Source: an uncultured Thermococci archaeon (GTDB lineage: Archaea > Methanobacteriota_B > Thermococci > Methanofastidiosales > B48-G16). From it: 64,000 nt of DNA. Location: NCBI GenBank assembly GCA_964595645.1, contig CAZQQT010000002.1, positions 1-64,000 on the forward strand. Direction: 5' to 3'. The notes under the pieces were generated by a model. The model saw only the letters and a list, made by a program, of their open reading frames with translations, was not told the origin of the DNA and searched no databases. Position numbers and translations under genes: made by a program. Below are positions 40,592 through 51,817 of this stretch, piece by piece (the first letter of the stretch is position 1; the number at the start of each line of letters is the position of its first letter).

Positions 40592-40608
40592 AAAAGTTGT
40601 TGTACAAC

Positions 40609-41241
40609 ATGCCAAAAACAGCGGTGTTCGACAGGAATGTCAGGAGGTACGATTCGTGGTTTGAGCAGCACCGTGCGGTGTATGAATCGGAGGTACTCGC
40701 CGTCAGACGGATGCTACCGGGAGGAGTCGGCGTGGAAGTGGGCGTGGGCACAGGACGATTTGCGTCGCCGCTGAATATTCAGTATGGGATCGAGCCCTCA
40801 CTGGAAATGGGAAAGGTTGCCATGAGAAGGGGAGTCGCTGTGGTACGAGGCGTGGCCGAAAGACTCCCGCTCAAACACACACTGTTTGATTTTGTCGCAA
40901 TGATTGTCACTGTATGTTTTCTCGATGATATCCACGCATCGTTCCTGGAAGCGTACAGGGTCTTGAAGCCTTCAGGACATCTAATACTGGGAATCATTGA
41001 TAAAGAAAGTTTTCTCGGAAGAATATATCAGAAAAGCAGCAGTCCCTTTTACGAAGAAGCCACTTTTTACTCTCCCGATGAATTGATCACTCTTCTGAGA
41101 GACAGCGGCTTTACTCATTTTACCTATGTTCAGACGCTTTTTCACAAATTAGATGAGATTACCACCCCTGAGCAAGTGAAAGAAGGACACGGTGAGGGAT
41201 CTTTCGTGGTAATTGATGCTGTAAAAGAAGAGAAGACATGA
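40609..41241 (+). CDS. Class I SAM-dependent methyltransferase
   Basis: YDSWF, EVGVGTGRF, AERLP, EAYRVLKPSG. Confidence 0.9.
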   Translation: MPKTAVFDRNVRRYDSWFEQHRAVYESEVLAVRRMLPGGVGVEVGVGTGRFASPLNIQYGIEPSLEMGKVAMRRGVAVVRGVAERLPLKHTLFDFVAMIVTVCFLDDIHASFLEAYRVLKPSGHLILGIIDKESFLGRIYQKSSSPFYEEATFYSPDELITLLRDSGFTHFTYVQTLFHKLDEITTPEQVKEGHGEGSFVVIDAVKEEKT

Positions 41242-41448
41242 GAGCGTTTGGTCCGCTCCATCACGTGTTTGGACAGAGCGTTGAAACTAATAACATTCCA
41301 TCAAAAAGAGTGTATCCTTCTCTGTCTACTGCATGGATCAATCAAACTTGTTTCAAACATTCTAGAACCACTTGCTGCCCCTTCTCCTCCGTTTTATCCG
41401 CTCCTTTTATAGCAATTGTCTGGGGCATATCCAAATCTCAATCTTTTT

Positions 41449-41985
41449 TCATGCGATACCCTCCCCACCTGTCTTCTCCATGATCAATTCTATGAGAAGG
41501 CCCATTACACCAACAAAAATGATGGTGAGAGATAACCTCGTCAGCATGAACGTTGGTCCTAGGAACTGGAGCTCCACCATCTCCTGCGGTATCTTGATGC
41601 AGGCCCACGCTGAAAGAAATACAACGATATTCGATATTCTGGCGCCTTTTTTTATTAAGGTTGATGCCATAGGGAAAGCGACATAGAGAGGGCCTGTAGG
41701 TAACGTACCGAATAGGAGTGCCAGGAAAAAACCTTTGACACCTGAGGCTTTCCCAAGGTGTTTTACCACTGTTTTTGAGGGGATGAAAACTGCGAAGAGG
41801 CCCATCAAGATCATTACTGCGGGGAGGATGTATATCATCTCATTTAGATAATCAAAGGATGCGGACATCACCGGTTCACGCTTTCCCGGATAAAAATAGA
41901 GCAGGACAGACGCCACCCCTAACACCACAAATAGTAATAACAAGTCTCTTATCATCTTCTTTTTCTGTTCTTCCTTTTTCTTCAC
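41449..41985 (-). CDS. Half-size ArsP/DUF318-like permease
   Basis: HLGKASG, GTLPTGPLYVAFP, KKGA, KIPQEMVE. Confidence 0.7.
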   Translation of the reverse strand: MKKKEEQKKKMIRDLLLLFVVLGVASVLLYFYPGKREPVMSASFDYLNEMIYILPAVMILMGLFAVFIPSKTVVKHLGKASGVKGFFLALLFGTLPTGPLYVAFPMASTLIKKGARISNIVVFLSAWACIKIPQEMVELQFLGPTFMLTRLSLTIIFVGVMGLLIELIMEKTGGEGIA

Positions 41986-42464
41986 AGCAGCACCCCCATT
42001 ATGAGAGCTATAATCACTGCGATAACGAAACTTAGACCGTTCCTTAGAAGAGCGAATTTCTTACCGAGTTTCTTTATCTCTAGTGGTAAGGTGACCATAC
42101 CTATCATTGTCAAAGTGGTGATGAAGGCAGCCACTGCCGTGATCGTTGCACCGCTGTCTAATATCGAAGCCGCCAAAGGGAAGGAGATGAGTGCTGGGAT
42201 ATGCAGGATAGAGCCCACCACCGCCACCAAAAGAACCCCGAATATTCCTGATTGTTCTCCAATGAATCTAGAGATCTCTGCAGGAGGCACGAACCCAAGC
42301 ATCAATCCAATGATCACGATTATAATGAGGACTGTAGGCAATATCCTAACGAAGGAGACCGCGGCTTTCTTCAACGACTGGATAGCTTTCTTTTTGCTTT
42401 TGCAAAAAGCGTATATCAAGCACACCAGTGCGAAGAGATTGATAAAAATAGCTGTTATGCTCAT
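41982..42464 (-). CDS. Half-size ArsP/DUF318-like permease
   Basis: IGEQSG, ISFPLAASIL..GA, TLPLE...LGKKFALLRN. Confidence 0.7.
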   Translation of the reverse strand: MSITAIFINLFALVCLIYAFCKSKKKAIQSLKKAAVSFVRILPTVLIIIVIIGLMLGFVPPAEISRFIGEQSGIFGVLLVAVVGSILHIPALISFPLAASILDSGATITAVAAFITTLTMIGMVTLPLEIKKLGKKFALLRNGLSFVIAVIIALIMGVLL

Positions 42465-42468
42465 CCAT

Positions 42469-42759
42469 TCACCCTGAGATCTGTATCCCTAACATTTTTA
42501 CGCCTTTTTTTGTCTTCATGGATAAGGTCGCCGGCGCTGTCACTAGGCACTGACCGTCCTTCAAATTTACTTCTTCATCGTTCACCGTTACGTCTACCTC
42601 TCCGTTGATGACGTTGAATATCACGTAAGAGGACATCTTGCAGGGCGGGATCTTCCCTTCTTCAGGGAGTTGAATATGTCTTATTTTGAACTCATCTCGT
42701 TCAAAGATCTGTTTTTTTCCTTCCATCTTTTTCAAATTGAATACTTCCATATTTCTCAT
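42469..42759 (-). CDS. Cupin-fold protein
   Basis: LPEEGKIPPC...VINGEVDVTVN...LKDGQCLV. Confidence 0.65.
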   Translation of the reverse strand: MRNMEVFNLKKMEGKKQIFERDEFKIRHIQLPEEGKIPPCKMSSYVIFNVINGEVDVTVNDEEVNLKDGQCLVTAPATLSMKTKKGVKMLGIQISG

Positions 42760-42764
42760 CTCCT

Positions 42765-43151
42765 TTATTCATTGTCTCCAAATTCTTCTTCATAAAAACT
42801 GGTCATCTTCTCCATCATCCTTTTTCGCTCTTTAATTATCTCCAACCAATTTTTTAGGTGTTCTCTTCCCTTTACAGTTATATCGTAAACCCTTTTATTT
42901 GGACCAGACTCACTTTCCCTCCACTCCGATTTTAAAAGCCCTTCTTTTTCCATTCTTCTGAGGGTGGTGTACATAGTTCCGGATTTAATTACGTGTCTTC
43001 CTTCACTCAACTCTTCGATTTTCTTCGTTATCCCATATCCGTGGATCGGTTCCTCACAGACAACACGCAGTATCAAGAACTGTATCCATCGGCGCTCTGG
43101 ATAACCTGAGTGGCTATGGCAGCCGGGCTCTGGTTTTCTGCACATCACCAT
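42765..43151 (-). CDS. PadR family regulator with Cys/His N-terminal arm
   Basis: HGYGI, GTMYTTLRRMEKEGL, KRVYDITVKG; start reassigned to 43151 (or 43145). Confidence 0.88.
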   Translation of the reverse strand: MVMCRKPEPGCHSHSGYPERRWIQFLILRVVCEEPIHGYGITKKIEELSEGRHVIKSGTMYTTLRRMEKEGLLKSEWRESESGPNKRVYDITVKGREHLKNWLEIIKERKRMMEKMTSFYEEEFGDNE

Positions 43152-43271
43152 ACTATGTAACATTGTTATATAAAAGGTTTTGGGAGGCAGAACTATCGAT
43201 GAAATAAAAAAAGTAAAAACATGCATAGTACGGGTAAACGATTTTTCATCTCAATTCTTCGATGTGTTCTT

Positions 43272-43592
43272 TTACTGCCACCTTTCAGGGCCTTTTTCTA
43301 ATTCTCTTTCTACTATCTCTTCTATCTTTTCCTTTGGAGGGACTTCGTCTGAAGTAACTTTCTTTCCGTTCACATAGGCGGACGGGACCTTACGTCTTTT
43401 ACCATCAGGGTCCTTCTGATATCCATCAGTCGGTACGTTACTCATCTTGGAGCCTGCATAATAAATATCAAGTCGGATCCTATCGGGAAACGATCCTACA
43501 AACTCTTCCATCATACTTATCAATTTCTTACATTTTGATGTGGGAGGTGAAGCAACCAACAGCTCTATCCTCATCATCTTGTCTTCACTCAT
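43272..43592 (-). CDS. Thioredoxin-fold-like protein with a single Cys (TSKC)
   Basis: IELLVASPPTSKCKKL and KVPSAYVNGK (cis-Pro-like); overlaps the ligase stop. Confidence 0.55.
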   Translation of the reverse strand: MSEDKMMRIELLVASPPTSKCKKLISMMEEFVGSFPDRIRLDIYYAGSKMSNVPTDGYQKDPDGKRRKVPSAYVNGKKVTSDEVPPKEKIEEIVERELEKGPERWQ

Positions 43593-44625
43593 ATCTTTCC
43601 ACCGCCTTATCTATCAGGTTTTTCAGATCTTCTTTTAGATGGTCTTCTAAGGAGCAATTCTCGATTATTTTGACACAACTAGAATATGTTGTATTAGAAA
43701 GAGCCCTCCTGACGCGATCAAGCTCTTTTTGATCCGCAACCAGAAAATCCCCTCTGATAGAAACATTTTTAAAGACATCTCCTTCTGTATCTGCTGAGAG
43801 GACTATAACTCCGCTTTTTCCTTTGGTGGATACGGTCATCGACCTGGATTCGTGTTCTTGGTAAGTCCATTTATCCAACGAATATTTATCTTCATACAGT
43901 TGTTCTGCTTCTTTCCTCTCATCGGCTGATAATACTCCTTCCTGGAACTCGATATTTAGACCACTTGATATATTGCTTTTCAAGTGTTCCATCACATCAT
44001 CAACTTTAACTGTATCATCGACCAACTCCGATAGATTCACGACTCTGTGCATTATATCGTTCTCTTCTTTGTCCTCAAATTTCAATTTTTTGGGGTTAAG
44101 AGTGTCATTAAGAGCATCTTTATCCACATCTATAAGGAACGTTCCGCTGTGTACCATACCAGAATACCATTCTATCTGGGCAGAACCGTATATCTTTTTA
44201 CCATTTACAGTAACATCGTTTGCTCCGCTGATCTCAGCCTTCACATCGTATTCTTTGAGTGTTTTTATGACCACCTCTCCCAATAATTCATACATCTCTG
44301 AAGGATTTTCTATATTCAATTTTGAAAAGAGAGGTTTCTTTCTGAAAAATAAGGAGTAACAAAATGTACCTTCATCCTGATAAACTGCACCACCGGGATT
44401 CGGTCTACGGATCACGGGGATGTCATTCTTATCACAGAACTCTAGGTCTACTTCCTCATCAGCATCCTGGTATATACCTATGAATACTGAGGGGTCTACC
44501 CTCCTCAATCTCAGGGTGTTTGGACTCCTACCCTCATCTACCCTCCTTAAAAGTGTTTCTTCCACTGCAAAATGCATCTTGGGTTCTTTGATATCCTCCT
44601 TCAGTGATCTCCAGATATCAGTCAT
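43585..44625 (-). CDS. Lipoate-protein ligase A family protein (catalytic + C-terminal domain), motif-divergent
   Basis: AVEE.LL, PSVFIG..Q, RRPNPGGAVYQD, NDV..NGKKIYGSAQ, HSGTFL, C-terminal I.GDF. Confidence 0.85.
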   Translation of the reverse strand: MTDIWRSLKEDIKEPKMHFAVEETLLRRVDEGRSPNTLRLRRVDPSVFIGIYQDADEEVDLEFCDKNDIPVIRRPNPGGAVYQDEGTFCYSLFFRKKPLFSKLNIENPSEMYELLGEVVIKTLKEYDVKAEISGANDVTVNGKKIYGSAQIEWYSGMVHSGTFLIDVDKDALNDTLNPKKLKFEDKEENDIMHRVVNLSELVDDTVKVDDVMEHLKSNISSGLNIEFQEGVLSADERKEAEQLYEDKYSLDKWTYQEHESRSMTVSTKGKSGVIVLSADTEGDVFKNVSIRGDFLVADQKELDRVRRALSNTTYSSCVKIIENCSLEDHLKEDLKNLIDKAVERYE

Positions 44626-45301
44626 AAAAGGGGCACCTTTCTCCCTTACAATCCTCTACATCTTCGGAAAAAGGACATCTGTTATCGGTCAACTTTGGTA
44701 ATTTGTATCTCTCTTTTAATATGGAATATCCTTCCTCTATCGAGGCATATACGCTCTGTTTGCAGCACCGTGGACCCCCCATCTCAGCGATAGCTTTTAA
44801 AGAATTTGAAGTTGCTCTCAATGCGGCACTTCTTTCTTCATCGGATCGGAAAGTCGCATCGGTGATCAACGATACGGCAGTACCGGCTGATTCGCAGGCT
44901 CCACAAGCACCACGGCTCCCACATGCACCGTACGGTATATCTTTCACTCGGTTCATAGCAGTCTTTATCTTTTTTAAAGAGATATCAACACCCGAGTTCT
45001 TACATACAGTCAGAATAACCGGAGCAACCAAAAGATGGTGCTCTATACCGTGAGGATTGAAGGAAGAATGCTTCATTATCAGATCTGCCAGTTCAAAGGG
45101 ATCAGTTCCATCATGGTTATCGCATGTTCTTTCTATGATCTCCTGTGGATCAGATAATCTGCAGGATTCACACTGAAAGTGTCCTTCTGGACAGATGAAG
45201 TTAGTTTCTTCTTTTTTTCCACAGTACATACACTCAGCAGCAGTGGCATGCTTTTCCAATATAGTCCCACAGATAGGGCAGGGGAATTCTCTTTCGGTCA
45301 T
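44618..45301 (-). CDS. DUF5714-like cysteine-rich protein
   Basis: CPICG, CMYCG, CPEGHFQCESC, HGIEHH, GACGSRGACGA, GGPRCCK, C-terminal CPF. Confidence 0.75.
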   Translation of the reverse strand: MTEREFPCPICGTILEKHATAAECMYCGKKEETNFICPEGHFQCESCRLSDPQEIIERTCDNHDGTDPFELADLIMKHSSFNPHGIEHHLLVAPVILTVCKNSGVDISLKKIKTAMNRVKDIPYGACGSRGACGACESAGTAVSLITDATFRSDEERSAALRATSNSLKAIAEMGGPRCCKQSVYASIEEGYSILKERYKLPKLTDNRCPFSEDVEDCKGERCPFYD

Positions 45302-45403
45302 CTCGTTATTCTCCGATATATCTTTTCGTTCCTTTTAATATCTGCTCTATCAACTATCCTACTTGAAGATGGAAGGCTTAATAGCAAAATAACTCTTCTA
45401 ATC

Positions 45404-45640
45404 CTACTCTTTCAACAGTTTTTTGATCTGTTCCGGATTCAGGACCTTTCCTGTAGCCTTCACTTCTCCATCCACTGCCAATCCAGGAGTACTCATGACT
45501 CCTCTTGAACTGATCTCCTGTAGATCCTGTACCTCTTCTACTTCTGCATCTATGCCCAATTCCTTAACAGCTTTCTTTGCGTTCTTTTCCAATCTCTGGC
45601 ATTTTGCACATCCGGTTCCCAATATCTCTATCTTTTTCAT
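45404..45640 (-). CDS. Small redox-active disulfide protein (MTH895-type thioredoxin family)
   Basis: KIEILGTGCAKC, GVMSTPGLAVDG. Confidence 0.9.
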   Translation of the reverse strand: MKKIEILGTGCAKCQRLEKNAKKAVKELGIDAEVEEVQDLQEISSRGVMSTPGLAVDGEVKATGKVLNPEQIKKLLKE

Positions 45641-45663
45641 ATATACTCACCTCTAAATTTCGT

Positions 45664-46035
45664 TTATTCTTTTTGAAGCCTATCCACTAAATCTTCAACA
45701 TCATCTATAATCTTATCTAATTTTTCTTCACTTTTAAAATCCTTATTCTTTTTTATATCGTATCTTTCAGATATAACGATTTCTTCATTCACAGGTATAT
45801 CAGCACTCTCAAGAGCTTTTGTTGCACACCTAACTTTACAGCCGTTCAGTCCGATATATCCATCGCTGCTTTTACCGTTCTCTATGATTCCTTCTATACC
45901 CAAAGGTAATCCGAGGGCACAAACGAAATCTGTGTTCTCCTTTTCCTCCAATGTGTTCACTACCGCTTTCGTCGAAAGCATTCCTACGTTACATGCCCCT
46001 GAGCAGGGCAATATTCCTATCTTTTTCATTTTCAT
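45664..46035 (-). CDS. DGC-domain putative zinc-binding protein
   Basis: PCSGACNVG and LNGCKVRCA (NGC variant). Confidence 0.8.
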   Translation of the reverse strand: MKMKKIGILPCSGACNVGMLSTKAVVNTLEEKENTDFVCALGLPLGIEGIIENGKSSDGYIGLNGCKVRCATKALESADIPVNEEIVISERYDIKKNKDFKSEEKLDKIIDDVEDLVDRLQKE

Positions 46036-46054
46036 CCTTCTCCTATATTAATCT

Positions 46055-46801
46055 TTAATTTTCCATCCTTTCGCTTAACTCTTGAAACGCAACTTTACTC
46101 TTAGCTCGGGGAATAGCCTGTTGATCCAGCAATTCCAAATTATGGATTATTTTATTGAAACTCTTTTGAGGGATTCCTATCAATGCTTCTCCAGAGTTTA
46201 CATCTGTCGCTTCTCTACATCCAAAACAGCCTAAACTCGTGTTTATTTTTTTCGTTAAAAAAGGAACAACTGTAGAATCAACACATGTGGCTTGAAAGAT
46301 AGAAGAATTAAATTCAAGTCTACCACCTTCGTCATAATATGAAGCTAAAGCTAGCCACATAATATCTTCAACTTTAGATTCGATAACAATTACATCTACG
46401 GGATAATTCACATCATTCAAAGGTCCTAAAGCCACGCCTTGATATTTACCCAACTCTAACCTCGGGATCGCATCCATTGTATTACTAGCTGCATCTTTAT
46501 CTTTAAATAAACCCATCTTATCCAACACTTCGCCTGTTCGAAGTTTATCTGCTAAAGGCTTAAAACCAAAAGCAGCAGTTGATGCAGGACATGTGATATT
46601 TTCTTTAGTCAAAACTACTTTCTCTCCCTCTCCTGCTCTCATTAATGCTTGACAATACCTACCCCTAAAATCTCTGTCGTATCCCTCCTTAACTATTTTA
46701 GCTATTCTATCCTTTGACTCAAAGAACTTGATACCTACAGGTTTTCTTTCCAATTCAAGTATTTCCATCAAAGTATCTACCATATTTTTTAATTTTTTCA
46801 T
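46055..46801 (-). CDS. DUF169 family protein
   Basis: KPVGIKF, RYCQAL, CPAS..AFG, QATC, SLGCFGCR. Confidence 0.85.
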   Translation of the reverse strand: MKKLKNMVDTLMEILELERKPVGIKFFESKDRIAKIVKEGYDRDFRGRYCQALMRAGEGEKVVLTKENITCPASTAAFGFKPLADKLRTGEVLDKMGLFKDKDAASNTMDAIPRLELGKYQGVALGPLNDVNYPVDVIVIESKVEDIMWLALASYYDEGGRLEFNSSIFQATCVDSTVVPFLTKKINTSLGCFGCREATDVNSGEALIGIPQKSFNKIIHNLELLDQQAIPRAKSKVAFQELSERMEN

Positions 46802-46817
46802 ATTGGTTGCCTCCCTA

Positions 46818-47897
46818 TCAAACTATCATTCCATATGTGAACCCCATCAAAGTTGAAAGTATCACAACGATCGCGATATAAGCGACCCACTGCTTGAATT
46901 TCATGATCCTGAACAGGACTATCATGTTGGGTAAGCTAAGCGATGGACCGGCGAGTAACAAACTCAAGGCTGGGGCGTCTCCCATGATACCCGCCGTATA
47001 ACCAAAAGTCGTTCCGATAATCGGGACCTCTAAAAGAGTGGGCATGTAGAGTATCGCTCCGATTATTGAACCTAGGAAGGATGCCAGTAGGCTATCGTTC
47101 CCAAGATATGGCCTAAAGGTCTCCGGAGGTAAAAAGTATGCTATCACTCCTACTATAAAGGTACCCACGATTAATATAGGAAATATCTTTTTCGTTAGAT
47201 CCCATGTTTCATATCCCCATTCCGTCACTTCACTTTTTTTGTAGTAATAGATGAGGACGGTAGCAAGGAAAACGGTTGCTATATATACGATTGCCAATTT
47301 TGGTACCCACGGAATACCAGCTGCTCCTACGACCAAGATTACTATCAACGATCCAAAGAACCCTAATTTCACCCATATAGACCTCTCAGGACTGTCATCG
47401 GGCATCGTATTGTCCATGTTATTCTTACTCGTCTCTTCATCATGTGTCTTGAATATAGTTGATATCACGAACGCTATCACGAATGCCATGGCAACGGCGG
47501 CGATCGCCCTAGCGAGCCCCAGTTCATAACCCAAAACGTTGGCAGTATACACGATGGCTAAAATATTGATAGCTGGCCCAGAATACAAGAAAGCGGTAGC
47601 CGGACCTACTCCACTCCCCTTTTTATACAATCCCGCGAACATGGGAAGTATCGTACAGCTGCACACCGCCAATATTGCACCGGAGACAGAAGCTATAGGA
47701 TAGGATATGGTTTTTTTAACATCCGGTCCGAGATACTCCAATATGGCATCTTTCTTGATGAAAGATGCGATAGCTCCAGCTATGAAGAATGCGGGCACCA
47801 AACATGTAAGAACATGTTCTGATAGGTAGCTATAGACGTTGAGCAGACCGCTCATCAGGACCTCGTAGAGTATTTCTATCATATCTTTCAACACCAT
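46818..47897 (-). CDS. ArsP/DUF318 family permease
   Basis: HVLTCLVPAFFIAGAI, LAVCSCTILPMF, FLYSGPAIN, MPTLLEVP, GPSLSLP. Confidence 0.88.
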   Translation of the reverse strand: MVLKDMIEILYEVLMSGLLNVYSYLSEHVLTCLVPAFFIAGAIASFIKKDAILEYLGPDVKKTISYPIASVSGAILAVCSCTILPMFAGLYKKGSGVGPATAFLYSGPAINILAIVYTANVLGYELGLARAIAAVAMAFVIAFVISTIFKTHDEETSKNNMDNTMPDDSPERSIWVKLGFFGSLIVILVVGAAGIPWVPKLAIVYIATVFLATVLIYYYKKSEVTEWGYETWDLTKKIFPILIVGTFIVGVIAYFLPPETFRPYLGNDSLLASFLGSIIGAILYMPTLLEVPIIGTTFGYTAGIMGDAPALSLLLAGPSLSLPNMIVLFRIMKFKQWVAYIAIVVILSTLMGFTYGMIV

Positions 47898-47965
47898 TTC
47901 AACTTTTTTTGAAATGCATTATGTTGTACCTTTATAAAGGTTTCGGTTTCAAAAATATTTGAAAC
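47895..47965. promoter_or_regulatory. Promoter with palindromic TATA flanked by two TTTCAA-N6-TTGAAA operators
   Basis: TTTCAACTTTTTTTGAAA (47897-47914), ACCTTTATAAAGGT (47928-47941), TTTCAAAAATATTTGAAA (47947-47964). Confidence 0.72.
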
Positions 47966-48029
47966 ACTGGTATTAAGATACAACCTTTCTACAATATAAA
48001 AAATAAAATGCTTTTTCTATACTGGGGGC

Positions 48030-48162
48030 ATGGATGAATATCTGCTATTTTTGAATAAGGGGGGAGGATACATTATCTGTTATCGATATCAAAAATAAAA
48101 AGACCATAAGAAAACTGGAAACAGATCATAATTTTCTGATAAATAGCCTATTGAAGAAGTGA
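48030..48162 (+). pseudogene. 5' fragment of a YncE/YVTN beta-propeller gene, frameshifted
   Basis: Removing one G from the G6 run at 48059-48064 gives MDEYLLFLNKGEDTLSVIDIKNKKTIRKLETDHN, a YVTN-type blade. Confidence 0.55.
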
Positions 48163-48257
48163 TCTTGTGAGCTGCAGAAAACTAAATATAGATTTTAATT
48201 TATCATATGCCTCTCACTATGAATAAAATACTATTTCTCTTCCTAAAAAGTGATTGA

Positions 48258-48431
48258 ATGTTAAATATTATTAAAAAACTTAAGAATGAAGGAATATTCA
48301 TTCGGGATCTCTTTCATCATCTTCCATCCAGCTGGATTAGGGTATCCATTGGTACTAGGAATGAGAATGATCTTCTTTTATCAGCTCTCCGTACCCTTCA
48401 CCCATATGATAACCAAAACTCATTTAAGTAG
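48258..48431 (+). pseudogene. 3' fragment of a HisC-like PLP aminotransferase
   Basis: LKNEGIFIRD...WIRVSIGTRNENDLLLSAL, the class I/II aminotransferase C-terminal motif; 57 codons only. Confidence 0.65.
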
Positions 48432-48451
48432 TTATACCGTACCTATGGTAG

Positions 48452-49303
48452 ATGGTACTCATGAAGGAATCGGTTACTCAATCCAGAGAAGAGCGAGTTG
48501 AGAAGCTCAATGCGACTGCACGCACGATCCGACGACACATTATTCGCGACATTTACGAAGCAGGTTCAGGGCACCCAGGCGGTTCTCTTTCTTCAACGGA
48601 GATTATTACAGCTCTCTATTTTCATCTCATGAACCATGATCCCGATAACCCTGATTGGGAGGAGAGAGATCGGTTTGTGTTGAGTAAAGGACACAGCTGT
48701 CCGGCGCTGTATGCTGCATTAGCAGAGGCTGGGTATTTTAATGTGGACGATCTCTTGGCGCTGAGAAAGCTCGGTTCACATCTTCAGGGTCATCCCTCGA
48801 TGAGAACACCAGGCATCGATATCTGCACGGGTTCGTTGGGACAGGGACTCTCGATTGCCGTGGGCATGGCACTCGGCCTTCGTCTTGACAGCAAGCTCTC
48901 CAGAGTCTACGTGCTTTTGGGGGATGGAGAGATGCAGTGCGGCCAGGTGTGGGAAGCTGCGATGGCAGCTGCTCATTACAATTTGGGCAATATCACCGCC
49001 TTTATTGATAGGAACAGACTCCAGATCGATGGGAGCAGTGAGCGTGTCATGTCGTTAGAACCGTTAGGGTTTAAGCTGAAGTCATTCGGATGGCACGTGA
49101 CGGAGATCAACGGCCACAATTTCAATGAGATCATCGATGCTGTGGAGAAGGGGAAGAAGATCAATGGAGAACCAAAGGCGATAATCGCCCATACAACCAA
49201 AGGAAAGGGAGTTTCGTTCATGGAAGGATCCGTTGCCTTCCATGGGAAACCCCCGAACGATGAAGAATTCGAGCGGGCAATGAAGGAACTGGGAGGCGAG
49301 TGA
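48452..49303 (+). CDS. Transketolase, N-terminal subunit
   Basis: [38 protein letters not shown] motif. Confidence 0.95.
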
Positions 49304-50248
49304 ATGTTTGACGAGTACAAGTATCCACGGGTAGCGTACGGAGAAACACTCCGCGAACTGGGGAGAGAAAGAAAGAATATCGTTGTACTTGATGCCGATC
49401 TTTCTGCATCCACAAAAACGAAGTTTTTTGGCAATATGTTTCCCGATAGATTCTTCAATATGGGTGTGGCTGAACAGAACATGATGTGTGTGGCAGCAGG
49501 TCTCGCTACCACAGGAAAAACGGTGTTTGCCTCGTCCTTTGCAATGTTTGCGACGGGTCGAGTGTACGATCAGATACGACAGTCCATTGCGTATCCGAAA
49601 CTCAATGTGAAGATTGTAACTACTCACGCAGGAATCACGGTGGGTGGCGATGGTGCGTCTCACCAGATGACCGAGGATATCGCCCTGATGTCTGCACTTC
49701 CCAATATGCGTGTCGTCGTTCCTGCAGATTATCAAGCCACAGGAAAGATCATCAGGACACTCGCGGACGAGGATGGACCAGCATACGTGCGAATGGGGAG
49801 AAGTAAGGTGCCTACCATCTACGATGATTCTTACGAGTTTTCTGTTGGGAATGCAACGGTGGTGAGGGAGGGTGACGACATCTCTCTTATCGCAATTGGC
49901 ATTATGGTTTCTGAGGCCCTTATCGCGGCGGAACAATTAAAAGAGAAGGATATCTCCGCACGCGTTATCGATATGAGCACGGTGAAACCCGTTGATCAGG
50001 CGTGCATTCTGGAGGCTGCCAGAGAAACAGGTGCCATTGTGACTGCAGAGGAACACAACACCACGATGGGCATGGGATCTATCATTTCCTCTGTACTTGC
50101 CGAGAACTACCCGGTGCCGCTGATTAAATGTGGCATTCCCGACGTGTTCGGTGAAAGCGGTGAGTATCGTGAGTTAATGGAAGCATACGGATTAACTGCG
50201 GATAATATTGTCACGCAGACCATGAAAATACTCAAACGAAAGGAGTGA
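49304..50248 (+). CDS. Transketolase, C-terminal subunit
   Basis: DADLSAST, GVAEQNM, DGASHQ, AEEH, DVFGESG. Confidence 0.95.
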   Translation: MFDEYKYPRVAYGETLRELGRERKNIVVLDADLSASTKTKFFGNMFPDRFFNMGVAEQNMMCVAAGLATTGKTVFASSFAMFATGRVYDQIRQSIAYPKLNVKIVTTHAGITVGGDGASHQMTEDIALMSALPNMRVVVPADYQATGKIIRTLADEDGPAYVRMGRSKVPTIYDDSYEFSVGNATVVREGDDISLIAIGIMVSEALIAAEQLKEKDISARVIDMSTVKPVDQACILEAARETGAIVTAEEHNTTMGMGSIISSVLAENYPVPLIKCGIPDVFGESGEYRELMEAYGLTADNIVTQTMKILKRKE

Positions 50249-50253
50249 GAAGC

Positions 50254-51147
50254 ATGAAAATTTTTATTGATACGGCAAAATTGGATGAAATCCAGGAGGC
50301 GAACTCATGGGGGATTGTGGATGGCGTGACCACTAATCCCTCATTGATTAAGAAGGCCATGGATGCACTGGACGAGCCGGTCGCCATGGAGGAGTATATC
50401 GCGTCGATATGCGCTGAAGTAGACGGGCCGGTGAGTCTGGAGACAATGAGCAGGACAACTGAGATGATGGTAGACGAAGCGGAAACGCTGTACGAGACGT
50501 TTAACGATGTGCACAACAACGTGGTGGTGAAGATCCCCGTGAACACTGCCATGGAAGAGGACCATGAGAACTACGAAGGAGTGAAGGCAATAAAAATCCT
50601 GGAAGACGAGGGAATCCCCATTAATGCCACGCTGGTGATGTCGCCGAACCAGGCACTGCTCGCCGCCAAGGCAGGTGCTTCCTACGTCAGTCCCTTCTTG
50701 GGAAGAGTCGATGACTATATACGGAGTAGAATGGGACTGGAACGTGGCGAGGACTACGCGAAGACGGCGTACTTCGATGAAGATATCTTTGAGACCATCA
50801 GGGTAGAAAAAAGACGGGATATGCTCCGAAAGAGACCTCACGAGCAGTTAGGGAAGTTATATCTCGATGAAAGGATTACCCCGCTTCCCACTGAGGTGAA
50901 CAGCGGTGTGGATCTCGTGCGAAAAACAAAAAGAATTTTTGAAAATTACGAATTTTCTACTGCCATCATTGCTGCGAGCATCCGGAACGCACGCCAGGTG
51001 GTGGAGGTTGCAGAAATCGGCGCCGAGATCGCGACCATCCCATTTAACGTGATCTCCGATATGATCTGGCACTACAAAACGAGGGAAGGAATGAAGGCAT
51101 TCACAGAGGATGTCATTCCCGAGTATAAAGTACTGTTCGAGGAATAA
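50254..51147 (+). CDS. tal: Transaldolase (TalC/Fsa family) with a large insertion
   Basis: FIDTA, GVTTNPSL, VSLE (Glu), VVVKIP (Schiff-base Lys), YVSPF (Phe), AASIR. Confidence 0.88.
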   Translation: MKIFIDTAKLDEIQEANSWGIVDGVTTNPSLIKKAMDALDEPVAMEEYIASICAEVDGPVSLETMSRTTEMMVDEAETLYETFNDVHNNVVVKIPVNTAMEEDHENYEGVKAIKILEDEGIPINATLVMSPNQALLAAKAGASYVSPFLGRVDDYIRSRMGLERGEDYAKTAYFDEDIFETIRVEKRRDMLRKRPHEQLGKLYLDERITPLPTEVNSGVDLVRKTKRIFENYEFSTAIIAASIRNARQVVEVAEIGAEIATIPFNVISDMIWHYKTREGMKAFTEDVIPEYKVLFEE

Positions 51148-51148
51148 T

Positions 51149-51817
51149 ATGGTACAGATTGCTCCCTCTATCCTCTCTGCAGATTTCTCCCGTCTCGGCG
51201 ACGAGGTGAGAGACGCGGAGCGTGGAGGTGCGGACATGATCCACATCGACGTCATGGACGGTCACTTTGTCCCCAACCTCACCATCGGACCCGTGGTGGT
51301 AGAGGCCATTGCGCCTCTTGTTACTATTCCGATCGATATCCATCTTATGATCGAGCACCCGCAGAATACCATCGACGAGTTCATCGATGCATTGGGGGAC
51401 CGAGATGTGTCCAACGATTATCTCTCTATCCACGCGGAGTCGTGTATCCATCTGGACCGATTGGTGCACATGGTGAAGGATCGTGGGGTGAAGGTTGGTG
51501 TCGCGTTGAATCCGTCTACGTCGTTGTCAATGATCGAGTGGCTTCTCGACGAGATCGATCTCATCGTGATCATGACTGTCAACCCGGGGTACAGCGGACA
51601 GTCGTTCATTGAGGGGATGCTGCCGAAGATACGGAGAACGCGGGAACTCGTAGGAGATAAGGAGATCGAGATTCTTGTCGACGGAGGAGTGAAGGCCCAC
51701 AACGCGAAGCGTATCGTCGAGGCTGGCGCGTCGATTCTGGCCGCGGGCTCGGCAGTGTTTAACAAAGAAGCATCTGTAGAACATAATATCCGAGGAATCC
51801 GGGAAGCTGCGAAATAA
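51149..51817 (+). CDS. rpe: Ribulose-phosphate 3-epimerase
   Basis: IAPSILSADF, HIDVMDGHFVPN, DIHLM, MTVNPG, VDGG. Confidence 0.96.
   Translation: MVQIAPSILSADFSRLGDEVRDAERGGADMIHIDVMDGHFVPNLTIGPVVVEAIAPLVTIPIDIHLMIEHPQNTIDEFIDALGDRDVSNDYLSIHAESCIHLDRLVHMVKDRGVKVGVALNPSTSLSMIEWLLDEIDLIVIMTVNPGYSGQSFIEGMLPKIRRTRELVGDKEIEILVDGGVKAHNAKRIVEAGASILAAGSAVFNKEASVEHNIRGIREAAK

Follow-up and report, generated by a model that had tools for sequence, protein, structure and literature searches.

Lipoate ligases, arsenic operons and the locus studied

The lipoate-protein ligase LplA, known from Escherichia coli, from the LplA/LplB pair of Thermoplasma acidophilum and from the structures 8cri, 2ars and 1x2g, shares its two-domain architecture with a protein that we name LplX, encoded in a stretch of 64,000 nucleotides (the window) from an uncultured Thermococci archaeon (contig CAZQQT010000002.1). 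The two also have in common the catalytic lysine, the RR motif, the ND motif and the adenylate loop. LplX belongs to the LplA superfamily but falls short of the equivalog cut-off and departs from the pocket pattern of LplA, and it differs further in having obligate gene partners, a DUF5714 protein and a thioredoxin-fold protein of about 100 amino acids (aa), and in lying in an arsenic resistance (ars)-type operon. We here describe this trio of DUF5714, LplX and the small thioredoxin (Trx)-fold protein, its recurrence in other genomes and the island of genes that carries it.

At the level of the whole system, the closest precedent is the sHdr-LbpA sulfur-oxidation system, which has its own dedicated ligase, sLpl(AB) (Cao et al. 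2018, PMC6067878). There, a cluster of genes for sulfur/thiol chemistry includes a second LplA-type ligase dedicated to a non-metabolic lipoyl carrier. However, its Hdr-like, DsrE and TusA genes are absent from the 11 genes of the island, and so is its GcvH-like carrier LbpA, a GcvH-like gene being present in only 4 of 32 related loci. The sHdr-LbpA system in turn lacks the DUF5714 and TxxC Trx-fold partners, and the genes that neighbour the trio are arsenic genes.

Described ars operons contain ArsR, ACR3, ArsP_1, an MTH895/ArsE Trx, DsbD_TM/ArsG-like and ArsM-like genes, all of which also neighbour the trio. In such operons ArsD passes trivalent arsenic (As(III)) to ArsA, and the small Cys-rich proteins of the trio may plausibly serve a pump likewise. 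Trivalent arsenicals are lethal largely because they chelate the dihydrolipoyl arms that GcvH and the 2-oxoacid dehydrogenases carry; to our knowledge, no described ars operon acts directly on a lipoyl target. Literature searches returned no description of an ars operon with an LplA-family ligase, DUF5714 or the small Trx-fold family, no paper on DUF5714, and nothing on DUF169 in connection with arsenic. The module is not mentioned in Haft's SAO preprint or in a 2026 preprint on ligase specificity. As for DUF5714, it matches the N-terminal half of the model for MbdU, a double selenoprotein that binds metal (NF045648; E 8.6e-38), over model positions 40-266 of 468 only and with 130.4 bits against a cut-off of 600; it lacks selenocysteine, is half as long and stands in a different gene context. 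DUF5714 also matches the C_GCAxxG_C_C family weakly.

The three-gene module and its arsenic-type setting

The trio recurs as a unit, in 15 genome or contig loci besides that of the window. When genomes were scanned with the small protein as seed, the order of the three genes was the same in all 11 loci over the length that the contig covers (at locus L007 it ends within LplX), and six further contexts that were opened showed DUF5714, LplX and then a protein of about 100 aa without a Pfam match. Metagenomes were scanned with LplX as seed and gave 56 unique strong LplX loci, where DUF5714 is the same-strand neighbour of LplX in 46 of the 48 with room upstream and the small protein adjoins LplX in 35 of 38. 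The gene order is DUF5714-LplX-small protein in 39 of these loci and small protein-DUF5714-LplX in 3. The only clear exception to the trio is a strong LplX (444 bits) at L060:6046-7074 and L061:2328-3356, which has no DUF5714 and no small protein in its vicinity, and at L084:9260-9872 the small Trx-fold gene occurs in two tandem copies after LplX. Members of the trio span at least 10 phyla of Archaea and Bacteria; the closest homologues of LplX (40-68% identity) come from metagenome-assembled genomes labelled Thermoplasmatota, Asgard archaea, Actinobacteria, Acidobacteria, Bacteroidota, Omnitrophota, Coprothermobacterota, Myxococcales and spirochaetes. A tblastn search of LplX against the PLSDB plasmids returned only canonical LplAs at no more than 30% identity and no LplX-type gene.

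Natural fusions join all three parts of the trio. Protein P0113 is a DUF5714-LplX fusion with its parts ordered as the genes are, and about 20 proteins of about 346 aa, found by profile search, consist of an LplA catalytic domain followed by a C-terminal small domain, which stands where the usual C-terminal accessory domain would be. The adenylate loop is deleted in these LplA-small-domain fusions and the catalytic lysine is missing in some copies. In a methanogen-like archaeon (L033:4540-9295; also L034, L101 and L115), DUF5714 is followed by two paralogous fusions of this kind and then by an ACR3-like pump and a small S-adenosylmethionine (SAM) methyltransferase; one of the two fusions is without the catalytic lysine, and a canonical-type LplA lies divergently upstream. 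The original prediction, made on the window alone, had proposed a candidate new system with the ligase linked to two small neighbours, and the near-invariant trio across phyla, together with the fusions, bears this out.

The neighbours of the trio were counted in the 32 unique metagenome LplX loci of at least 7 kb, with five canonical-LplA loci from the same scan as controls. At least one of ArsR, ACR3, ArsM-like and ArsP_1 was found in 22 of the 32 long loci versus none of the five controls. Taken singly, ArsR/SmtB was present in 19/32, ACR3 in 10/32, ArsP_1 in 9/32 and an ArsM-like methyltransferase in 7/32, accompanied by Trx_3 (12/32), DGC (8/32) and DsbD_TM/ArsG-like genes (7/32). ACR3 and ArsM-like genes are arsenic-specific; one or both occur in 14 long loci, often directly abutting the trio. 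Examples of ACR3 score 384 and 462 bits with TIGR00832, above the equivalog cut-off of 283. In L010, ACR3 shares 4 bp with DUF5714; L036, L046, L051 and L053 have ArsR-ACR3 pairs in divergent orientation. CDF transporters (5/32) and Zip, FmdE and TauE genes are also among the neighbours. The enrichment of ArsR, ACR3, ArsM-like and ArsP_1 genes around the trio agrees with the link to arsenic that had been suggested for the window; the accompanying expectation that the trio would recur with ArsP held in part, since the trio does recur, but ArsP_1 is a frequent rather than a fixed neighbour. Together, the linkage, the fusions and this neighbourhood firmly support a conserved, mobile three-protein ligase complex belonging to arsenic-type operons.

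LplX aligned over its full length with the solved LplAs (E 1.7e-30 to 1.5e-15) and is 26-30% identical to E. coli and canonical archaeal LplA. The alignment with 8cri spans residues 12-318, set against residues 13-308 of 8cri, and thereby includes the C-terminal accessory domain, for which PF10437 gave only E 0.004. K144 aligns to the catalytic K133 of E. coli and is invariant in 74 LplX sequences, in which R73/R74, N136/D137 and the adenylate loop, present as PSxLKF..VRxRV, are invariant or nearly so. The retention of these residues makes it very likely that LplX is an active ATP-dependent ligase. The acyl pocket is altered: W37 of E. coli is replaced by R41, which is invariant in the LplX clade, H79 by Q83, H149 by S160 and the SGGG loop by NPGG (N76-P77). 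The lipoate-binding loop reads RRPNPGGAVYQD and departs from the canonical RRxxGGGxV(F/Y)HD with W37, H79 and H149, and the score with the LplA equivalog model TIGR00545 is 210.6 bits, below the cut-off of 280. In E. coli LplA, mutation of the gatekeeper Trp37 widens the substrate range (PMC8229434). The remodelled pocket, which the original prediction had overlooked, leaves open a substrate of LplX other than lipoate. In a FastTree tree of catalytic domains, all 28 LplX domains, the fusion included, group together in a single clade, separate from the large subunits of canonical LplA, on a long stem and with a modest support of 0.62. C64 and C89 were considered as clade-specific cysteines and rejected, as E. 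coli and canonical archaeal LplAs share a cysteine at these positions.

The small protein has a single cysteine, with T18-S-K-C21 instead of CxxC, and scores below the Thioredoxin_3 cut-off. Its AlphaFold2 (AF2) model has the thioredoxin fold with a predicted local distance difference test score (pLDDT) of 89; VIA-align gave Z scores up to 9.5 (root-mean-square deviation (rmsd) 2.5 over 83 residues), with Trx-fold proteins in all of the top 50 rows, and in Foldseek ArsD appeared only as a generic Trx-fold match at rank 44. C21 is invariant in 18 aligned free-standing small proteins, and so are K20, K65 and P70, the last being cis-Pro-like. A word-indexed search with the small protein gave just 7 relatives and a profile search gave the remainder, the family amounting to 64 representatives among 1.84 billion. 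A duplicated LplB-like domain was rejected as its identity, since hhalign of LplX against the profile of the small protein shows no homology, the C-terminal domain of LplX included.

The complex prediction for LplX with the small protein scored 0.70, whereas the best of three controls scored 0.02; 58 of 80 solved complexes attain that mark, as do 2 of 110 mismatched pairs, figures that apply only roughly because author-built alignments were used for LplX and the small protein. The runs share at least 83% of contacts, with a partner pLDDT of at least 86. The modelled interface brings strand 260-269 and the C-terminal tail of LplX against the small protein, which contributes its strand 39-45 and its helix 25-37. 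The contact looks like that of a subunit, not like a lysine in an active site, and the model supports binding of the small protein to the C-terminal domain of LplX.

In the DUF5714 protein, a zinc-ribbon-like N-terminal part containing four Cys pairs is joined to a helical core (AF2 pLDDT 94.6). The residues C127, C133, C179, C180, C209, C218, C223 and H89 are invariant in the core, and the seven cysteines and H89 are kept across DUF5714 subtypes in the alignment. A Foldseek search of the model against the PDB returned nothing with E <0.5, and a search of Atlas features returned only DUF5714 clusters. In the wide VIA-align search, the cysteine desulfidase CyuA (9fsl_A) had Z 6.3 (rmsd 4.6 over 142 residues), too low for a helical protein to count, and other helical enzymes followed at Z 4-5; the match serves at most as a weak lead towards a possible Fe-S or Cys-metal site. 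DUF5714 is also the C-terminal domain of radical-SAM and ArsM-like proteins of 1005-1046 aa, found in 10 of 401 sampled Bacteroidota genomes, where the seven core cysteines are retained and the ArsM-like domain scores E 3.6e-57 and 194 bits with NF008823, below its cut-off of 263. Two examples are L141:2639-5656 (genome G524) and L142:2556-5639 (genome G436), and such a protein could be an undescribed organoarsenical-forming enzyme. The cysteine pattern and these fusions suggest that DUF5714 may bind As(III).

The accessory island carrying the trio

In the window, the trio belongs to a run of 11 co-directional genes on the minus strand at 41449-47897 (Table 1). All 11 are absent between conserved flanks in genome G015 of the same genus, as determined by a DNA search of the family genomes: the flanks, at window positions 40607-41307 and 48415-51198, lie 7.1 kb apart in the window and about 860 bp apart in G015, and genome G012 has the same empty arrangement. 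Because the flanks adjoin without them in both genomes, the 11 genes make up one accessory island, which is horizontally acquired and of metalloid type. DUF5714 was found in only 2 of 133 genomes of the host GTDB phylum. The original prediction had placed seven co-oriented genes at 43272-47897, and these are real, all being minus-strand open reading frames (ORFs) at these positions with agreeing Pfam and NCBIfam families; the extent it gave was too narrow, as the four downstream genes to 41449 and the island nature were missed. Within the trio, the DUF5714 gene shares 8 bp with that for LplX, which in turn shares 8 bp with the gene for the small protein.

Table 1. Genes of the island and the upstream intergenic region, with window coordinates
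Feature	Coordinates	Strand	Evidence and remarks
ArsP_1-family permease, 359 aa, CSC motif	46818..47897	-	PF03773 256 bits; island gene 1
DUF169 protein, 248 aa	46055..46801	-	PF02596 197 bits
DGC-domain Cys protein, 123 aa	45664..46035	-	PF08859 78 bits
CxxC (CAKC) thioredoxin-like protein, MTH895/ArsE family, 78 aa	45404..45640	-	Thioredoxin_3 104 bits
DUF5714 Cys/His-rich protein, 227 aa, trio member 1	44618..45301	-	PF18978 170.9 bits, cut-off 26.2
LplX, LplA-clade ligase, 346 aa, trio member 2	43585..44625	-	PF21948 165 bits, cut-off 27
Single-Cys thioredoxin-fold subunit, 106 aa, trio member 3	43272..43592	-	alignment and AF2 model
PadR-family regulator	42765..43226	-	PF03551 79 bits
Small cupin-like protein, 96 aa	42469..42759	-	weak Cupin_2 match
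Half-size ArsP_1-like membrane protein, 160 aa	41982..42464	-	ArsP_1 37 bits (first half)
Half-size ArsP_1-like membrane protein, 178 aa, last island gene	41449..41985	-	second half, split permease
AT-rich intergenic region, presumed promoter	47898..48451	.	upstream of gene 1; no ORF >=60 aa at 47898-48285

The first permease of the island has the ArsP_1 fold, and the CSC motif is visible in its translation; the NCBIfam SaoE and SO_0444 models give it about 90 bits, far below their cut-offs. The Trx_3 protein scores 105 bits with TIGR00412 (MTH895/ArsE, NCBIfam), above the cut-off of 62, and the DGC gene is the sole one in the genome. Several of the accompanying genes meet the trio again elsewhere: DUF169 lies beside it in loci L005, L008 and L014, a cupin-like homologue of 49% identity lies immediately upstream of it in L016, and the pair of half-size ArsP_1-like proteins stands before it in L016 and after it in L052.

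PadR is probably the local regulator of the island. Its ORF has an N-terminal extension with C-x6-C-H-S-H preceding the winged helix, which could be a metal(loid)-sensing motif unless the true start lies further downstream. The ArsP_1 gene has at its 5' end an inverted repeat of 18 nt (TTTCAA...TTGAAA at 47897-47964, 89% complementary), a possible operator.

A second ars-type operon was observed in the same genome on contig C8 (C8:64140-69050; L147:2643-7544), with a divergent ArsR followed by ArsP_1, a 221-aa protein, a DsbD_TM-like protein, Trx_3, ACR3 and a 150-aa protein. The ArsP_1 and Trx_3 encoded there are paralogous to those of the island, with 68% DNA identity between the two ArsP_1 genes. 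The presence of the paralogue in an operon with ArsR and ACR3 lends indirect support to organoarsenical export as the putative role of the island ArsP_1.

Candidate functions of the LplX complex

The genome, 99.96% complete, has a single lipoyl acceptor, the GcvH encoded by gcvT-gcvH on contig C3. No GcvH or lipoyl domain was found within the window and no LipA reaching the cut-off anywhere in the genome, and the absence of GcvH/E2 lipoyl domains and LipA that had been noted for the window therefore holds. A housekeeping LplA catalytic subunit of 249 aa is encoded on contig C10, and on contig C6 (C6:2436-4031; L123, L125) an LplB-like ORF of 98 aa lies beside a radical-SAM ORF of 320 aa; together these probably represent the housekeeping archaeal LplA/LplB plus a LipS-type lipoylation route. 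As the genome has both this LplA and the LplB-like gene, LplX is an extra paralogue. GcvH was present in all 11 trio-bearing genomes tested and three LplA/LipB-type genes in each of the five trio genomes tested. At some loci GcvH is part of the setting: L084, L070/L071 and L094 have, upstream of Trx_3 and the trio and in the same direction, a GcvH-like gene and then DGC, and in L100 and L031 GcvH and DGC make up a block that is divergent from ArsR and the trio. The pairing of GcvH with a following DGC was counted in 4 of the 32 long metagenome loci and in 2 genome loci. This co-occurrence of GcvH and DGC points to protein lipoylation, and a role in lipoylation repair would fit both the housekeeping LplA/LplB and GcvH elsewhere in the genome and the GcvH-DGC genes in the same operon at some loci.

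We tentatively favour, as having somewhat less than an even chance of being correct, an arsenic-stress ligase complex that charges GcvH-type carriers, with cysteine-bearing partners that bind or strip As(III) towards the pump. The core would be a three-protein complex of DUF5714, LplX and the TxxC thioredoxin-fold subunit, in which LplX would act as an ATP-dependent LplA-type acyl ligase additional to the housekeeping lipoylation enzymes. Under arsenic stress, LplX would load GcvH-type carriers; its substrate would be lipoate or a dithiol acid closely related to it, perhaps reduced or with As(III) bound. Where a dedicated GcvH is co-encoded, this would be the carrier, and in this genome it would be the single glycine-cleavage GcvH. 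DUF5714 and the single-Cys Trx-fold subunit would bind As(III) or strip it from the dithiol, and As(III) would then be handed on via Trx_3 and DGC to the exporter, which would be ArsP_1 here and ACR3 elsewhere. Several observations weigh against this scheme. GcvH lies near the trio in only 4 of the 32 long loci and is absent at the window locus. The residues of the lipoate pocket are not kept (W37 to Arg, H79 to Gln, H149 to Ser and SGGG to NPGG), so lipoate is not assured as the substrate of LplX. As(III) binding by DUF5714 is only a suggestion because its fold matched nothing clearly. The regulator in the window is PadR and not ArsR, and ACR3 is located elsewhere, on contig C8; ArsR together with ACR3 or ArsB, as in a classical ars operon, is thus not found in the window, but it is found in many related trio loci. 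Finally, the roles of the ArsP_1 and ArsR/SmtB families extend to Cu, Zn, Cd and further metals (bioRxiv 10.1101/2022.07.06.499078).

The altered pocket can also be read differently. LplX might activate another acid with a polar or anionic far end, such as a chelate of As(III) with dihydrolipoate or a carboxylic acid that carries arsenic, and join it to an amine, in a step of detoxification or biosynthesis for which DUF5714 would deliver the arsenical, as it perhaps does in the radical-SAM/ArsM-like fusions. The replacement of Trp37, the gatekeeper of substrate range (PMC8229434), by the invariant R41, the further changes at Q83, S160 and N76-P77, the TIGR00545 score below the cut-off, the fusion of DUF5714 to ArsM-like enzymes and the ArsM-like genes in 7 of the 32 long loci are in keeping with such a substrate. 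Yet the fixed neighbours of the trio include no candidate acid or biosynthetic genes, the co-occurrence of GcvH and DGC in some loci indicates protein lipoylation, and the remaining LplA machinery is kept, the acceptor-facing C-terminal domain included; we regard this conjugation as quite unlikely. A broader proposal is that LplX is not a salvage enzyme for canonical carriers at all and instead either ligates an arsenic-bearing acid or builds, with its two obligate partners, a protein-bound dithiol-plus-cysteine site for As(III) or trivalent methylarsenic (MAs(III)). In the latter version the site would be formed on a partner or on a private GcvH and the arsenic passed to ACR3 or ArsP, lipoic acid serving as an arsenic chaperone. 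We give these two versions, taken jointly, a substantial chance of being right, though one well below even.

Another place for the lipoyl group is within the module itself, as in the second idea of the original prediction. LplX would then lipoylate K65 of the small protein, near C21, or K181 of DUF5714, near C179-C180, and the product would be a three- or four-thiol As(III) trap feeding the pump. The As(III) sites of known Ars proteins are formed by three thiols, K65 is kept in free and fused small domains with C21 in nearly all, K181 is invariant in 68 LplX-type DUF5714 sequences and most loci are without GcvH. Against these points, K65 is not among the confidently placed contacts of the complex model, the fused forms do not keep K20 and K68, other DUF5714 subtypes have Gln or Ala in place of K181, and the hairpin fold seen in known lipoyl acceptors is absent from both proteins. 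For the Trx-like protein, which had been named as a possible acceptor, the model counts against the idea, as it places the protein as a subunit on the C-terminal domain of LplX with no lysine in the active site; the sister family, in which the same domain replaces the accessory C-terminal domain of the ligase as a subunit would, does so too. An acceptor within the module is accordingly judged improbable. The relatives of ArsP_1, among them Cu/Zn efflux pumps and SaoE (bioRxiv 10.1101/2022.07.06.499078), the CDF genes in 5 of the 32 loci, the Zip, FmdE and TauE neighbours and the PadR regulator of the window would suit a general island for thiol and soft-metal (Cu, Zn, Hg, Sb, Cd) homeostasis, not tied to arsenic in particular, whose ligase would serve the redox repair of lipoyl proteins under thiophilic stress of any kind. 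But ACR3 above the equivalog cut-off and ArsM-like genes, both arsenic-specific, in 14 of the 32 long loci and the fusion of DUF5714 to an ArsM-like domain make this distinctly improbable. That LplX is an ordinary lipoate-salvage ligase placed in the operon by chance is barely credible: its membership in the Pfam LplA family would allow it, but the near-invariant synteny with two specific partners in at least 10 phyla, the fusions, the separate clade and the housekeeping ligases in the same genomes all speak against it.

Lipoic acid, the classic target of arsenic, may thus have machinery of its own that handles it under arsenic stress. The module is widespread and horizontally mobile in ars operons of anaerobes from both domains, and whether cells under arsenic stress shield, rebuild or make use of the lipoyl group can thereby be tested directly. 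It provides the first functional context for DUF5714 and for the small Trx-fold family of 64 representatives, and LplX offers a natural LplA variant with arginine at the engineering hot-spot Trp37. Should LplX prove to build a chaperone site or to ligate an arsenic-bearing acid, this would be a new enzymatic step in the biology of arsenic and a new use of the LplA fold.

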